A DNA stretch of 29,228 nt from IMG/VR virus record IMGVR_UViG_2778261380_000007, positions 1-29,228 of that record; one strand, 5' to 3'. This DNA comes from a virus. Taxonomy: Duplodnaviria; Heunggongvirae; Uroviricota; Caudoviricetes. The position numbers and the translations under genes are program-made. Shown here piece after piece: positions 1,267 through 6,707 of the stretch (its first letter is position 1; each line of letters opens with the position of its first letter). The notes beneath the pieces were generated by a model. The model made no database searches, was not told where the DNA came from, and saw only the letters and a program-made list of their open reading frames with translations.

Positions 1267-3441
1267 CTATCTAATCCTGAACATTACAATTGGAGCAGAG
1301 CCAGAAGATAAAGGGCCTGACCAATGGTATCTAATTCTGAAAGAAGACTCACTTGGAGTTCCGATAATTTCTATTGGACTTAAAGTTGCACCTTCTGCAG
1401 AACCAGCAGGTTGTCTAAACCCCAACACAGCAATCTGGTTTGGTGTTGGGGCATACAGAAAATTATGCTCAATATCAACCTCGTTAGATTCGCTACCTGT
1501 TGGGTTTGGCATATTCCACTCAATATAATCGTCAGTTGATTTCCCATTTATTGAGTTTCCAACTGTTGCCATAATCGTCCACGTACACGTCCTGTTAAGG
1601 GCTGCCATTCTATCACCTAAAAACCTATTATAACCATTTGCGCCTGAAGTGATTAATCTTATATTCTCTGATGCACATGTGCCAATGCTGTTAAATCCAG
1701 TGCAATCAGAAGAAAGCCCCTTCGCAGTTATATCTACGCTGTTCGCAAAACAAATTGTTGTTGAATTTACTGCATCGCGAATAAGAGCAGAACCCGAAAA
1801 CAAATTATCACACGAACCTCTTATATTATTACCACCGCCGGATAAGTAACATAAATTTCCTTTTATCCTCTTGGATGTAAAAGTAACATTGTTATTGTCA
1901 CCAGTAACAGAAAGAAGCGAGGCTTTAATAGGGGCATTGTCACTCTGTAACTGACCAATTTGGTTTATTGTAACTACATTGTTGTTGCCTGATATAGCTA
2001 TCTGATACCCATCATCATCAATTGAAGGTGAATATCTTTGTGCTTTTATATTGATGTTAAGTGTCCAGATTGTACCGTTATCCAGAAGCATGTCGCGGAG
2101 AGGAGAAATTGAATCGCCAGTGTAGTTATCTGGCATTCTTCCGCACGCCCTGGCTTCTGCGATGGCAACAACACCATGTGCCCCGTTGGTAAACCAGTAA
2201 CCACCTAAACTATTATCAACACACACATGCCTCGCATTGAATCGGTTAACACCCAGCGTCTTAAATCCATAGCCATAATACGCAGCATATACATGGATGT
2301 AATTTATATCGACATGTCCTGTATAAGGAGACTGATTATCAAGAACAATTCCATGACATGGTTCTCCGGGATAAAGAAGGCTTTGTTGGCTTGTTGCTGT
2401 TAATCTTGCGCTGTAAGGAGGAAGTCCACACAGGCCAAAAACAATATAATCCATGTTAATATCACCTGGCCCCCTGAACACAACCCCCTCTCTCCCTGAA
2501 ATTCTTCCCGTTATCCTCACTTCAGAGGCGTGTTCCTGATTATCATGAAATGATCCATACCCCTCTGAATAGAGAGCATGTTCTGCAACATTATTAATCT
2601 CAACGTCAATGTGGTACATGCTGCCGAATATTTTAATGGCAGTTCCATAGTCATTGTTAACAGTGTCGCAAGTTCTCCATGAGTTTGTATCTCTTTGCAA
2701 GTCAAGATAATTACCATCAATGGTCATATCTTTTATGCTAAATCCATATGGCGCATCAGACAGATTTTCCACAACGCCAAAGCCATGTGTTTTAAATACA
2801 TCTGTATTACTACCTTTTTTAACATACAGAAATGTTGCTCTCTTTCCAGAGCCTTTATGATGAACGCCTGTATAAAGAATGATAGGAGAATCTATTAAAT
2901 AAACACCTGGAGGGTAAAATATTTCCCCGCCACCATTATTAAAAGCAGCTAATGCTGCGGCATTAATGGCATCAGAATCTGATGTCAATCCATCTGCTTT
3001 AGCTCCATAGTATTGAGGTGTTTTCCTGATTGCATCGTAAACCGTTGAAGCGCCGAAACCGATATATTTACTACCATCTGTACCGCCAATAAGTAATTTA
3101 AACTGATCCGGGTCATACTTCAGCACATTCGGAAAATAGAACTGCTGTGTACCATACGCATCATAAACAGCCATAGAATGGCCTTGCACGGTTACGAATT
3201 TGGCAATCTGTCCGTTATATACCGGATATCCAGCAGCGTTAATGATTATTGGTTGCGAAACAGGAACGTGAGAACCGTCTTCATTCTCCACATAAACCTG
3301 AATCTGGTTTTCAGGATTTACTGGGTCAGTGTCAATTTTACCGATATAAATTTTGCCATTAGCTACGGCTTTAAAAGAGCGGGCCATAGTGAAGAGTTGC
3401 GAAGGCATGCTCACTACAACATTGGCTGTAATGTCTGTCAT
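1267..3441 (-). CDS. Tailspike protein (P22 gene 9 family): conserved N-terminal head-binding domain fused to a divergent receptor-binding domain
   Basis: 724-aa ORF. First ~110 aa ([43 protein letters not shown]...[10 protein letters not shown]) closely match the P22 tailspike head-binding domain as I recall it; the remainder is not P22-like and is more AT-rich. Confidence 0.9.
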
Positions 3442-3496: not shown

Positions 3497-3515
3497 TACG
3501 ACCACCGTGGTCTTA
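3497..3515. promoter_or_regulatory. Mnt-operator-like palindrome TACGACCAC-C-GTGGTCTTA (core GACCAC-C-GTGGTC, 3500-3512)
   Basis: Seen directly: perfect 6-bp arms around a central C. It resembles the P22 mnt operator (AGGTCCAC-G-GTGGACCT as I recall it) with one change per half-site, and sits between the divergent tailspike and mnt genes. Confidence 0.6.
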
Positions 3516-3544: not shown

Positions 3545-3576
3545 GCCGATCCACTCACAAGAGCGAGGCATCAAGA

Positions 3577-3828
3577 ATGGGAAGAGATGACCCGCAATTT
3601 AATCTGCGGCTACCTTACGAATTAAAGGAAAAACTAAAACAGCGAGCCAAATCCAATGGCCGCTCTCTTAATTCAGAATTAGTTCAGATAGTGACTGATG
3701 CTGTATCAAAGCCATCCAAAATTTCAGGCTATCGAGACGATGCGGAACGCATCGCTGATGAGCAGTCCGAACTTGTTAAGAAGATGGTGTTTGATACGCT
3801 GAAGGATTTGTACAAAAAACCCACCTGA
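3577..3828 (+). CDS. mnt: Mnt-like ribbon-helix-helix repressor (Arc/MetJ family) with an Arc-type recognition beta-strand
   Basis: 83-aa ORF, near-identical in length and in its C-terminal two-thirds to P22 Mnt (...NGRSLNSELVQIV...YRDDAERIADEQSELVKKMVFDTLKDLYKK). N-terminal strand is PQFNLRLP (Arc-like) rather than Mnt PHFNFRMP. GAGG RBS upstream. Confidence 0.9.
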   Translation: MGRDDPQFNLRLPYELKEKLKQRAKSNGRSLNSELVQIVTDAVSKPSKISGYRDDAERIADEQSELVKKMVFDTLKDLYKKPT

Positions 3829-3927
3829 AGGTGAGTTAATTTTTGCATTTACCTGGGCCATATTGACTACTTATAAAATGAGATCAATATTTAATCGCCC
3901 AATAATGGGTGTATGTTGAGGTATATC

Positions 3928-4107
3928 ATGGCGAAAAAACCAGGTGAAAACACAGGAAAAAACGGCGGAATATACCAAGAAGTTGGCCCGCGCGGAGGTA
4001 AGAAAGACAATTTTGCCACCGTCAAGGACAACGAAAGGCTTCCGCCAACAACAAAGCCAGGTCATGGCTGGGTATTAGATAAGCGAACTCCAGACAGCAA
4101 AAAGTAA
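3928..4107 (+). CDS. Small conserved hypothetical protein (YjzC-like pattern, 59 aa)
   Basis: ATG at 3928 preceded by GAGG with 6-nt spacing (the ORF-track start at 3913 is probably too early); same strand as and 100 bp downstream of mnt; followed by a terminator. Motif KKPGENTGKNGGIYQEVGPRGG...HGW resembles YjzC-like small proteins (from memory, low certainty). Confidence 0.6.
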   Translation: MAKKPGENTGKNGGIYQEVGPRGGKKDNFATVKDNERLPPTTKPGHGWVLDKRTPDSKK

Positions 4108-4113
4108 TAATCA

Positions 4114-4135
4114 AGCCGGGTCACTCCGGCTTTTT
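4114..4135 (+). terminator. Rho-independent terminator of the mnt / small-ORF transcript
   Basis: Stem AGCCGG (4114-4119), loop GTCACT, stem CCGGCT (4126-4131), then TTTT (4132-4135), immediately after the 3928-4107 stop codon. Confidence 0.75.
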
Positions 4136-4486
4136 GATATGTCGCTCGCAGAACTCAACAAGCCTGCTCATTAAGTAGCAGTAAGTCTCGTTGGCTCTTC
4201 CTGGTTCAACATCAACGCCTACCCTTGAGCAGATATCGAATGCCATGTGAGCGCACTCATGGGCAATAGTAGATAGTTTGCCATTGAACACACCTATCAC
4301 ATGCAAAACACCATTCTCGCTGCTCATTGTATGAGACGCTCCGTTGGCATCCGAGTCCTGCACGTCCACGCCAAGTTTTTGATGCAGGCGTTGCCATTCT
4401 GGAAAGTCTCTGCAAAACACAATCGTACCGCTCTCAAAGAGCGGAACGAGCATCTTTGGTACGTTTCCAATGTTAACTTTTTTCAT
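4121..4486 (-). CDS. Small HEXXH protein, possibly a minimal ImmA/IrrE-like zinc metallopeptidase (121 aa)
   Basis: ORF with ATG at 4484-4486 and an AGGA RBS. Contains AHECAH followed ~20-25 aa later by acidic residues (VEPGRANE) and several Cys. Sense orientation relative to late transcription reading through from gene 16. Family assignment is inference. Confidence 0.5.
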   Translation of the reverse strand: MKKVNIGNVPKMLVPLFESGTIVFCRDFPEWQRLHQKLGVDVQDSDANGASHTMSSENGVLHVIGVFNGKLSTIAHECAHMAFDICSRVGVDVEPGRANETYCYLMSRLVEFCERHIKKPE

Positions 4487-4516
4487 GGTATCCTGCGCAA
4501 AACTAAGGAGGTTGGT

Positions 4517-4846
4517 GTGTTAGAAATAGTCGTACTCGCTCTTGGGATATCCTGTTGCGTACTATATGCAGGGTTAGCTGCCCTCAAGAAACAGGTTAAG
4601 GAATTAGATCGCTCACATGAAATTGATACAAAAATTGCGCGATTAACAGAAGAGAATAAACACTTAAAAAATTCCATAAGGGCACTAACTGATGACAACT
4701 ACAAACTGTCCCATGCATTGGCTAAGTGGGAAATAGTAAGTTATGAAAGAATGACCGACATGATTTTTTCGTCTTATATGGCTACAAAATCTCCTGAAAC
4801 ATCAGGAAAAGCAATAATTGCAGCCATTGAAAAGAGAATTAAATAG
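4517..4846 (+). CDS. Membrane-anchored coiled-coil protein (109 aa), AT-rich accessory gene; candidate superinfection-exclusion-type moron
   Basis: GTG start at 4517 preceded by a strong AAGGAGG RBS (4505-4511); the ORF-track start at 4301 is probably spurious upstream extension. N-terminal hydrophobic segment LEIVVLALGISCCVLYAGLAAL, then K/E-rich heptad-like sequence. Low GC. Occupies the position sieA has in P22. Confidence 0.5.
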   Translation: MLEIVVLALGISCCVLYAGLAALKKQVKELDRSHEIDTKIARLTEENKHLKNSIRALTDDNYKLSHALAKWEIVSYERMTDMIFSSYMATKSPETSGKAIIAAIEKRIK

Positions 4847-4865
4847 CCTTCCTTGGCGTTCATTT

Positions 4866-6707
4866 CTACTGCCTAGTAGCTTCGTTAGTTAGGAGAGGGC
4901 GAACGGCGTTAGCAGCCTGATTTAACGCTCGCTCATATGCCGGAGTTCCAGGCTTGACGTTTGCAAGGCGGAGAAGCATGTTTCTTGCTGCTTTAGACTC
5001 ATACAAACGCATCATTGCACCAAAGCCAGCCTCAAGCCCCATTGATACGCCAAGAGTCGCAGTTGCGCCAATCGTCCTTATCCGGTTGGCTTGCGATTGC
5101 CCCGTCTGAGTTACTACATTTGCGGTGTCTGACCTTGCTGTTTGCTGTAGAACTTCATGAAGAGAATCAAGCTCTTTCATGTGCTTTCCAGAAAAAATAG
5201 TGTTGTAAATTTCACCGCCTGACTGAGATTTCAGCTTATTAACTTCAGTGATGAACTTGGCTGGAGAGTCACCGGCCTTTTCCGCTATTTTGCTGACGTA
5301 AGCTGCACGCATAGCATCTTTCCCTTTATCATCCAATGCGCTCCAGATTCGTTTCACGTCAGATGGTTTTCTGCTTAATACAACAGTATTTATAAGTTCA
5401 GGACTGGCTTCACTGCTTGCCTTGTTGAGCTTGTTAGCAATGTTTTTATTAAGCACCTTATTATAAACGTTTGCATAATCGGAATTTGCTTTAAGGTATT
5501 TTGCTGCGTCTGACGCACCGAGGTTTTTTGCAACTGCGTTACGAAGGTCTTTTGACATTGCATTCTCTACCATATTGGTAGCTGCTTTTGCCTGGTTGGG
5601 GAAGACCATAGCATCTCCCTGAACATTAGATCTAAATGCTGTTCTGTGCTGACGCAAGAGATCAAACGTAACATCCAAATCAGTTGCAGGGTTTGCTAAT
5701 TCTTCACGCAGGTTACGCAAGGATGTAAGCAGGCTTTGATTGGCTGAAGTCCCAAGCCGTTCCTGTCTTGCGATCGCTGTATTCAGAGCATTCATGGTAT
5801 TTGTAGTATCAACTGCGGCATTACCCATTTTATTGGTGACGTCATTGATAACAGCGCCAGCAGCATCCTTCCGCCCCCTTAACGTGGTGGTCAGAGATTT
5901 CACCACATCATCAGGGTTGTACTCACCAAAACGGTCAAAATAATTGCTTACCAGCTTACTACGCGTTGCATATTGCTCTGCTCGCTTTGAGCCCGTCCCG
6001 AGCAAAGCCCCCTCGGCATCCTGAGTAAGGCCGCGAGTGAAAGCATTTTTCGGCGGGATAACATCAGATGTCATTGGTGTCACGCCCATCGATTCTGATG
6101 TGGCAATTTTCTTCGCCACTTCTGGCGCAATATCACCTTTTATAGCCGTTATTCCACGCCCTATTCCCTTTGCTGCTGCGGAAAGAACACCCTGAGCGGC
6201 AAGGTTAACTCCGGCATTTTTAGCTGCATTTTGTGCGAAATCGCCTTTCTGATTTGCGGCCTCTGCCAGCGATCCAATAGCCATGCTTCCTGCCGTTCCA
6301 ACTCCTGGAACTAAATACCCACCAATTGTTTCACCGGCTTGTGCGTATGGGTCTGTCGGTTTATCTACTGGACGATAAACATCATCCAAAACTTTTGGCC
6401 CACCAAGCCCCTGACTGATTGCATTAATCAGACTTGCGCCACCCTGCAATACGTCAAATGGTACGTTTACCAGACCACGACCAGCCTGTTCTGCAATTTG
6501 CCCTGCACTTTGACCACCAGTGAGCCAATCGCCAGCTTGTTGCATCAATGATGGTTCTTCCCGTGTTGGTGCATTATTGTCCTGATTAACTGTTTGTTGC
6601 TGAACAGCCTGACCAGCAAAATACTCATCAATGGCGGTGCCAATATCTTCGGTGCTCGTACCATCAGGAAAGGTAAATGTCTTACCGTTTGCAGTTACTT
6701 TCATCAT
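4866..6707 (-). CDS. Ejection (DNA transfer) protein, P22 gp16 homolog
   Basis: 613-aa ORF, N-terminus [30 protein letters not shown]; position and size as P22 gene 16; start overlaps the gp20 stop (ATGA). Confidence 0.85.

Follow-up and report, generated by a model that had tools for sequence, protein, structure and literature searches.

What kind of gene is the small open reading frame (ORF) that follows the repressor gene mnt in a P22-like phage genome, and what could it be doing there? The window analyzed here is the whole 29,228-nucleotide (nt) stretch of IMG/VR virus record IMGVR_UViG_2778261380_000007, part of a P22-like (Lederbergvirus-type) genome, and the ORF occupies positions 3928-4107 of its plus strand. 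A first-pass annotation, made from the sequence alone, had presented it as a gene co-transcribed with mnt and suggested a superinfection-exclusion or conversion moron. Our analysis identified the ORF as an already known gene, orf59a of phage P22. From its sequence surroundings, it is best described as a self-contained, autonomous cassette that happens to be downstream of mnt. Beyond the older annotation of the gene, the present work adds the autonomy of this cassette, its linkage to a HExxH gene, intact in P22 but unannotated there, and the occurrence of relatives at the cargo slot of CapH/CapP modules and at the tail of IetAS loci.

The small ORF is orf59a of P22

The ORF and its surroundings in the window are as follows.

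3918-3921 (+): ribosome-binding site GAGG, the ATG of the small ORF lying 6 nt further 3'
3928-4107 (+): orf59a-type coding sequence, 59 amino acids (aa), YjzC-like (PF14168 superfamily); basic and hydrophilic, predicted three-stranded beta sheet
1267-3441 (-): tailspike, in P22-like gene order
4866-6707 (-): gp16-type injection protein, in P22-like gene order

Megablast and tblastn searches of phage records showed that the 59-aa product (MAKKPGENTGKNGGIYQEVGPRGGKKDNFATVKDNERLPPTTKPGHGWVLDKRTPDSKK) shares 58 of 59 residues (98.3% identity) with P22 orf59a (AAM81399) and is 100% identical over 59 aa to the SE1/ST160 protein (SE1 gp65). As expected of an orthologue, this near-identity is accompanied by synteny with the tailspike, mnt and gp16 genes in a P22-like genome. 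The position after mnt, the upstream promoter region, the terminator and a convergent hkcC ORF are all shared with P22; unlike P22, the window lacks arc and ant, and sieA is replaced by an hkcB-like transmembrane/coiled-coil ORF, as in HK620, SE1 and ST160.

The gene is not a discovery, having been annotated for more than 20 years in the well-studied P22, and it is still without function, none being assigned to it in the literature searched. In the P22-pbi record the gene is labelled "orf59a" and the hairpin 3' of it "t mnt", while the HK620 record states that the same stretch "may encode HkcD" and marks a "bidirectional terminator tORF59A". The accessible parts of the P22 RNA-seq paper (BioProject PRJNA737196) and its supplements do not mention orf59a, and the BTP1 transcriptome paper (PMC7067206) deals with a prophage region without the gene. 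The mnt-orf59a-hkcC stretch (window 3560-4500) also has matches in 270 of 5,426 complete Escherichia coli genomes, where the genes are annotated as hypothetical proteins; 56 of these matches cover at least 80% of the stretch. Both the identity with P22 orf59a and the constant partner hkcC had escaped the first-pass annotation.

Its claim of a real 59-aa gene with a good ribosome-binding site, following mnt on the same strand, was borne out. Homologues carry GAGG, GGAG or AGGAG at the equivalent place. A longer, 64-aa reading from the ATG at 3913 was rejected, as homologues begin with MAKK, MSKK or MGKK and the ribosome-binding site serves the start at 3928. The expected conservation in related phages was also found: homologues form 108 clusters at 90% identity and 82 representatives at 50% identity, drawn from Enterobacterales, alpha-, beta-, gamma- and deltaproteobacteria and a few other phyla, with 63-80% amino-acid identity. 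In pairwise comparisons with every lineage outside the P22 group, the proportion of nonsynonymous differences (pN) was 0.13-0.25, with synonymous differences (pS) saturated at 0.77-1.0; against P22 orf59a, the ratio of nonsynonymous to synonymous rates (dN/dS) was 0.09. Strong purifying selection acts on the small ORF, which is a genuine protein-coding gene.

This amino-acid conservation across phyla despite saturated synonymous change effectively refutes the notion of an incidental ORF over a conserved RNA or regulatory spacer, to which we assign a negligible probability; a conserved 5' stem-loop and likely antisense transcription (both described below) speak for it, and the conserved ribosome-binding site and start, the existence of tandem-repeat protein versions and a confident predicted fold speak against it.

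ORF59a as a YjzC-like protein

The first-pass annotation had likened the product to YjzC proteins and proposed a profile search as a check. As a single sequence, ORF59a scored 19.4 bits against Pfam YjzC (PF14168; E 1.3e-3, profile positions 8-54 of 55), below the 25-bit gathering threshold. The profile-profile comparison was strong: hhalign aligned the orf59a subfamily profile (alignment A3) with PF14168 proteins over 59 columns, the full length, at 99.1% probability and E 1.5e-18. Of the 15 proteins in the target, 14 match PF14168 at E <= 1e-3; the first member scores 29.2 bits, above the 25-bit cut-off. In a joint alignment, 29 of 45 relatives match PF14168 (best 2.8e-15), phmmer links the small ORF directly to PF14168-annotated proteins, and phrog_3202 matches it at E 7e-31.

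The AlphaFold2 (AF2) model of ORF59a (mean predicted local distance difference test score, pLDDT, 84) shows a three-stranded sheet, with strands at residues 14-19, 25-32 and 47-53. A Foldseek search of BFVD returned as its sole significant neighbour a viral 'YjzC-like protein', A0A8S5MH11 (template modelling score, TM, 0.73; root-mean-square deviation 1.8 A; E 2e-4). The YjzC family has no solved structure of its own, and sequence searches of known structures gave only noise, namely designed repeat proteins (Cake, Symfoil) and malic enzyme at E >= 0.16. With members of the PF14168 family, such as Bacillus subtilis YjzC and the 'YjzC family protein' of phage phiCT9441A, ORF59a shares a length of 55-65 aa, the motif PG..(n)G.Y.EVGPRGG...(v/t)...LPPT.kpG..W and the predicted fold. 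Unlike Firmicutes-type YjzC, the proteobacterial/P22 subfamily has an extra conserved tail, (K/R)TP(D/N)SK(R/K), and on its own it scores under the Pfam threshold. Sequence profiles and the model together place ORF59a in the YjzC-like family, and we hold this assignment, together with the anatomy of the gene described below, with high confidence.

ORF59a has an isoelectric point of 9.9 (family median about 10) and a grand average of hydropathy (GRAVY) of -1.43, and no hydrophobic, transmembrane or signal segment was found in it. Two related proteins, P0127 and P0180, consist of 2-4 tandem YjzC-like domains, which suggests that the domain is a modular binding unit.

A predicted transcription unit beside mnt

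The elements flanking orf59a on the mnt side and at its 3' end are listed below.

3577-3828 (+): mnt, 83 aa, Arc/Mnt ribbon-helix-helix repressor (Pfam Arc 2.8e-22, Repressor_Mnt 2.2e-18)
3818-3837 (-): hairpin over the mnt stop codon, a good intrinsic terminator leftward and weak on the plus strand
3863-3891 (+): predicted sigma-70-type promoter of the small ORF, with TTGACT (-35, 3863-3868), a 17-nt spacer and AATATT (-10, 3886-3891)
3896-3911 (+): short stem-loop or dyad (CGCCCA ATAA TGGGTG) just 3' of the -10, at the predicted 5' end of the transcript, obtained as a consensus fold
4113-4137 (+): intrinsic terminator of the small ORF, an 8-bp G+C-rich stem (4113-4132) followed by TTTTT, overlapping the last hkcC codons

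P22, HK620, Morganella, Proteus, Xenorhabdus and Rosenbergiella share both hexamers of the predicted promoter, and the distance between them, without change, while spacers and flanks have diverged; altogether the promoter is conserved across seven lineages, including prophages without mnt. Klebsiella and one metagenomic lineage have a weaker -35 and a TG-extended -10 at this place. The consensus fold of the stem at 3896-3911, based on six lineages, has five pairs, the fourth of which shows compensatory variation, with C-G in three lineages and U-A in the other three; visual inspection of alignment A7 showed a G-C variant in row L102. The element may work as an RNA hairpin at the 5' terminus or as a small operator in the DNA.

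At the other end, the first-pass annotation had placed a terminator at 4114-4135, which is essentially right: the stem and its T tract fold at -12.6 kcal/mol (z = -2.8, plus strand), and the minus-strand face of the stem is not followed by a U tract. Terminator-like hairpins lie 3' of 23 of 80 homologues, compared with 1.6% of random windows in the same loci. The gene thus has its own predicted promoter 5' and its own terminator 3', as a moron should. It resembles classical prophage morons in being a promoter-gene-terminator cassette on the strand opposite to the late genes that is mobile among unrelated phage backbones, and differs from them in travelling convergent with a late-strand gene, hkcC, with a terminator common to both.

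The relation to mnt appears loose. The hairpin at the mnt stop codon, labelled 'tMNT' in HK620, folds at -13.9 kcal/mol (z -4.1) and is followed by U6 on the minus strand, and reaches only -7.9 kcal/mol (z -1.5) on the plus strand. Because it is weak in the latter direction, read-through from Pmnt is plausible, and Pmnt transcripts probably reach into orf59a. The proposed co-transcription with mnt may therefore occur, and the "t mnt" label of the P22 annotators fits it; as a full account of orf59a expression, it is contradicted by the conserved predicted promoter and by the 16 of 80 IMG/VR loci that lack mnt. In these 16 loci orf59a is still 100% identical, and further contexts without mnt include Rosenbergiella, Klebsiella, Xenorhabdus and Salmonella bongori. 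A dependence of orf59a on mnt is not supported by this distribution.

Mnt of the window is 76% identical to P22 Mnt, most changes falling in the N-terminal DNA-reading part. A palindrome resembling a variant Mnt operator, ACGACCACCGTGGTCTT, lies at 3498-3514, between the tailspike start and mnt; an Mnt operator near the orf59a promoter was considered and rejected, as the palindrome occurs only at that place. With arc and ant absent, the classical target of Mnt (Pant/ant) is missing from the window.

Convergent coupling to hkcC

The constant neighbour of orf59a is a gene on the opposite strand.

4121-4486 (-): hkcC-like gene, 121 aa, phrog_1365; invariant HExxH and NET motifs, convergent with the small ORF

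The stop codon of hkcC is 14 nt from that of orf59a, within the shared terminator. In orientation, hkcC agrees with the late genes (gp16, tailspike) and orf59a opposes them. The two genes adjoin each other in 80 of 80 IMG/VR loci. The same holds for every Enterobacterales context examined, whichever of the two genes was the starting point, e.g., in Morganella, Proteus, Xenorhabdus, Rosenbergiella and Serratia. When three divergent HkcC homologues were taken as starting points, a convergent 59-aa YjzC-like gene was found 14-30 nt downstream each time. The block occurs in three settings: the podovirus immI region, the siphovirus tail region (between tube/chaperone genes and tape measure) and beside the lysis cassette. 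Physically, orf59a is coupled to hkcC more tightly than to mnt. YjzC genes without hkcC occur in S. bongori and in phages of Gram-positive bacteria.

In P22 the gene is intact (L001 2892-3257, minus strand) yet unannotated in AF527608 and BK000583, and the annotated sieA promoter overlaps its start. Alignment A4 revealed six invariant residues in HkcC (H76, E77, H80, N99, E100 and T101), and the AF2 model (pLDDT 87) shows a sheet plus two long helices. A Pfam search of HkcC gave no match. In an hhalign comparison with M78 proteins encoded beside YjzC-like genes, the aligned region was limited to 18 columns surrounding the HExxH motif (20% probability), and a Foldseek search of the model returned no significant match, the sole protease-like hit being SPRTN at E 0.33. 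We have accordingly not filed HkcC as an M78/ImmA peptidase, the alignment covering the HExxH motif only and no fold match being significant.

A paralogue of HkcC, Orf129, about 38% identical to it and located within the late operon, is encoded in ST64T (L183 2501-2890), L, epsilon34 and ST104, where it is flanked by lysis genes and the small terminase gene. SE1 and ST160 carry both paralogues.

The arrangement has a predicted consequence for transcription. Since the shared hairpin has no minus-strand U tract, and leftward transcripts meet their next good terminator at the mnt end, late transcription through hkcC would continue antisense through orf59a, and an antisense RNA over all of orf59a is predicted. 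Berget, Poteete and Sauer are said to have found in 1983 that gene 9 of P22 is expressed by antiterminated transcription across this region.

Relatives in bacterial chromosomes

Bacterial contexts were counted over 80 species-representative loci, found with subfamily alignment A3. The distribution is patchy, one search pattern giving 165 matches in 185,579 species genomes. In 25 of the 80 loci, a gene for an M78 (ImmA/IrrE/CapP-type) peptidase lies no more than 0.81 kb upstream, usually as a capP-capH pair divergent from the YjzC-like gene. PADLOC recognized these neighbours as capP and capH, with values as low as 1e-58 and 9e-24, respectively, or as fused RmrA-type proteins. Several sphingomonad and Caulobacterales loci have the YjzC-like gene alone in the cargo position, and in Pseudomonas-type loci it lies 3' of a DUF3892 gene. 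IetA/IetS is found upstream on the same strand in 10 further loci.

CapP cleaves the XRE-type repressor CapH after DNA damage, which derepresses the divergent operon (Lau et al. 2022, bioRxiv 10.1101/2022.04.27.489752), and DUF3892 operons are named in the same work among CapH/CapP cargo. The relatives of orf59a resemble such cargo operons in being divergent from capH-capP, often as the sole cargo gene or together with a DUF3892 gene. They differ in that Lau et al. do not mention YjzC-like genes, whose regulation by CapH/CapP is suggested by the arrangement. A further parallel is Rv1954A of Mycobacterium tuberculosis, YjzC-like by its authors' description and the first gene of the HigA-repressed Rv1954A-higB-higA-Rv1957 operon, which also has a DNA-damage-induced promoter (PMC3912914). 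It, too, is under a small helix-turn-helix repressor (HigA; compare Mnt here and CapH in proteobacteria), with the difference that it belongs to a toxin-antitoxin-chaperone operon and not to a prophage.

Some individual arrangements deserve mention. The order capP-capH (divergent), DUF3892 gene, YjzC-like gene is seen in loci L040, L055, L063, L074, L091 and L092 (Pseudomonas, Delftia, Gallionellales; positions of about 4300-6180), and an Eco29kI-type restriction-modification pair lies beside this module in the Pseudomonas-type loci L040, L055 and L091. The published 'DUF3892 systems' under CapH/CapP may thus contain an overlooked small second gene. In unrelated bacteria (L013, L034, L037, L068, L071, L079 and L083-L085), the YjzC-like gene lies on the same strand 39-230 nt 3' of ietA-ietS, and in some IetAS defence loci it may serve as a third, accessory gene.

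Relatives in other phages

In several unrelated prophages, YjzC-like genes are oriented against the late genes around them. The positions vary: between the lysis genes and the terminase in an S. bongori prophage, next to the lysis cassette in Xenorhabdus prophages, in the tail region of Rosenbergiella and Klebsiella siphoviruses, and in the head region of Clostridium phage phiCT9441A. In Brochothrix phage NF5, an unannotated YjzC-like ORF (L012 2687-2860, plus strand) lies opposite the annotated gp50, and one of the two is perhaps mis-called.

Possible function of ORF59a

Taken as a whole, the reading that we favour, with slightly less than even confidence, is that orf59a is an autonomous cassette with an intracellular conflict or stress function. 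In the lysogen, as its anatomy implies, the gene would be transcribed from its own promoter, possibly with extra read-through from Pmnt. During lytic growth, minus-strand late transcription running from gp16 through hkcC to the tailspike gene would pass antisense through orf59a, and the same transcription would express hkcC. As late transcription is antisense to one gene and sense for the other, orf59a and hkcC are likely expressed in opposite phases. The protein would act in the cytoplasm as a stand-alone conflict or stress effector rather than block injection at the envelope; this functional class, drawn from the context of relatives, is offered tentatively and with somewhat less than even weight. 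ORF59a would bind a widely conserved target, for which nucleic acid is the most plausible candidate because of the basic charge and the conserved aromatic residues on the beta sheet, although this choice of target is itself doubtful.

A bolder version would extend to the whole family. YjzC-like mini-proteins would be unrecognized stand-alone conflict effectors, released by CapH/CapP or accompanying IetAS, and would form a lysogeny-versus-lysis module with HkcC in P22-like and lambda-like prophages, with ORF59a hampering an incoming phage and being neutralized on induction by antisense transcription, HkcC proteolysis or both. We regard this complete scheme as a speculation that is unlikely to hold in all its parts. 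If the associations do reflect function, a 59-aa P22/Salmonella protein would offer a tractable entry to the widespread YjzC family, and the findings would bear on what minimal CapH/CapP modules control.

Several observations weigh against the favoured reading. Of the 80 chromosomal loci, about half have no protease, regulator or defence neighbour, and some adjoin housekeeping genes (nrdAB, an aminotransferase, an enoyl-ACP reductase). In the window itself, mnt is the upstream gene, and capH/capP and ietAS are absent. HK620 can dispense with the gene, since its copy of orf59a (L010 2501-2680) is a pseudogene interrupted by an in-frame stop (IYQ*VG); in HK620, mnt is only a remnant, and the promoter, terminator and hkcC are intact. 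The coupling to hkcC is one-sided, because HkcC-like proteins occur without orf59a, both as the Orf129 paralogues of ST64T, L and epsilon34 and as relatives in virulent phages. The promoter scan by itself yielded 3 sites in the region against 2.6 expected, not above chance, and the weight of the predicted promoter therefore lies in its conservation across lineages. The literature searched held no expression or phenotype data on orf59a. PADLOC and NCBIfam gave no match for ORF59a (nor for HkcC or the 109-aa product of the ORF next to hkcC), and Foldseek found nothing in the PDB below E 1.8 for the ORF59a model; with neither a PADLOC/NCBIfam match nor a similar solved structure, the functional reading rests on guilt by association.

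The alternative that survives best would make ORF59a a general small stress or physiology protein that helps the host, for example under DNA damage or in stationary phase, and hence a fitness moron without a conflict role. The family does occur in core-like chromosomal contexts beside nrdAB and metabolic genes, it takes its name from B. subtilis yjzC (Pfam PF14168), and CapH/CapP-like switches resemble the Deinococcus IrrE/DdrO DNA-damage regulon; the 63-80% identity retained across proteobacterial classes suggests a universal cellular target. Against this stand the repeated linkage to mobile or defence-type neighbours (IetAS, Eco29kI restriction-modification, type I restriction, DUF3892) and the patchy distribution among species genomes, which suits an accessory gene better than a core stress gene. 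On balance, we consider a purely physiological role unlikely, though it deserves to be taken seriously.

Rather improbable, in our view, is a lysogeny/lysis pair in the strict sense, in which lysogen-made ORF59a inhibits a lytic step of superinfecting relatives, and the late zincin-like HkcC, along with antisense transcription, removes ORF59a on induction as self-immunity. The convergent pairing, found without exception in the IMG/VR loci and in every Enterobacterales context examined, the joint movement of the pair among three phage positions, the opposite orientations relative to the late genes and the minus-strand face of the shared terminator, with the next good minus-strand terminator beyond orf59a, are all consistent with it. 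So are the invariant HExxH and downstream Glu of HkcC and the presence of metallopeptidase genes beside YjzC-like genes elsewhere. Protease activity of HkcC is, however, unproven: Pfam gave no match, the M78 alignment was confined to the motif, and the best protease-like fold, SPRTN, was not significant. Moreover, HkcC paralogues are found without orf59a, virulent phages included, YjzC genes are found without hkcC in S. bongori and in phages of Gram-positive bacteria, and in CapH/CapP systems the protease substrate is the repressor and not the cargo.

A very unlikely explanation is the one closest to the first-pass annotation, namely an envelope-acting passenger of the mnt operon, made only with the repressor and serving superinfection exclusion or surface conversion of the lysogen. 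The position downstream of mnt on the same strand, the terminator name "t mnt" and the weak plus-strand hairpin after mnt would suit such a gene, and the gp16-tailspike interval of P22-like phages is known for lysogen-expressed exclusion functions, sieA and the BTP1 STnc6030 antisense RNA (PMC7067206). The conserved predicted promoter and the retention of orf59a without mnt argue otherwise. The protein lacks transmembrane and signal sequences, is strongly hydrophilic and has no PADLOC match, and the YjzC family is often found in chromosomal contexts unrelated to phages. According to the literature, P22 is excluded by a plasmid carrying sieA, orf59a and mnt, and sieA alone is sufficient to reproduce this exclusion. 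ORF59a differs from a SieA-type factor, which would be an inner-membrane protein that blocks DNA entry and that exclusion either requires or needs alone. The moron-like anatomy stands, whereas exclusion and O-antigen conversion are disfavoured by the missing hydrophobic segment, the sufficiency of sieA and the chromosomal relatives.

Finally, a role as an accessory regulator of the immI circuit (Mnt/Arc/Ant), suggested by the location inside immI beside mnt, is highly improbable: the window, SE1 and ST160 keep orf59a without arc and ant, orf59a-type genes occur in siphoviruses and chromosomes without immI, and the Mnt-operator-like palindrome lies only at 3498-3514, away from the orf59a promoter.

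The ORF in the sieA position

One further gene lies between hkcC and the gp16-type gene.

4517-4846 (+): 109-aa ORF, HK620 hkcB-like, phrog_8100; N-terminal hydrophobic segment and coiled coil

This ORF occupies the position of sieA and is a candidate alternative exclusion protein.

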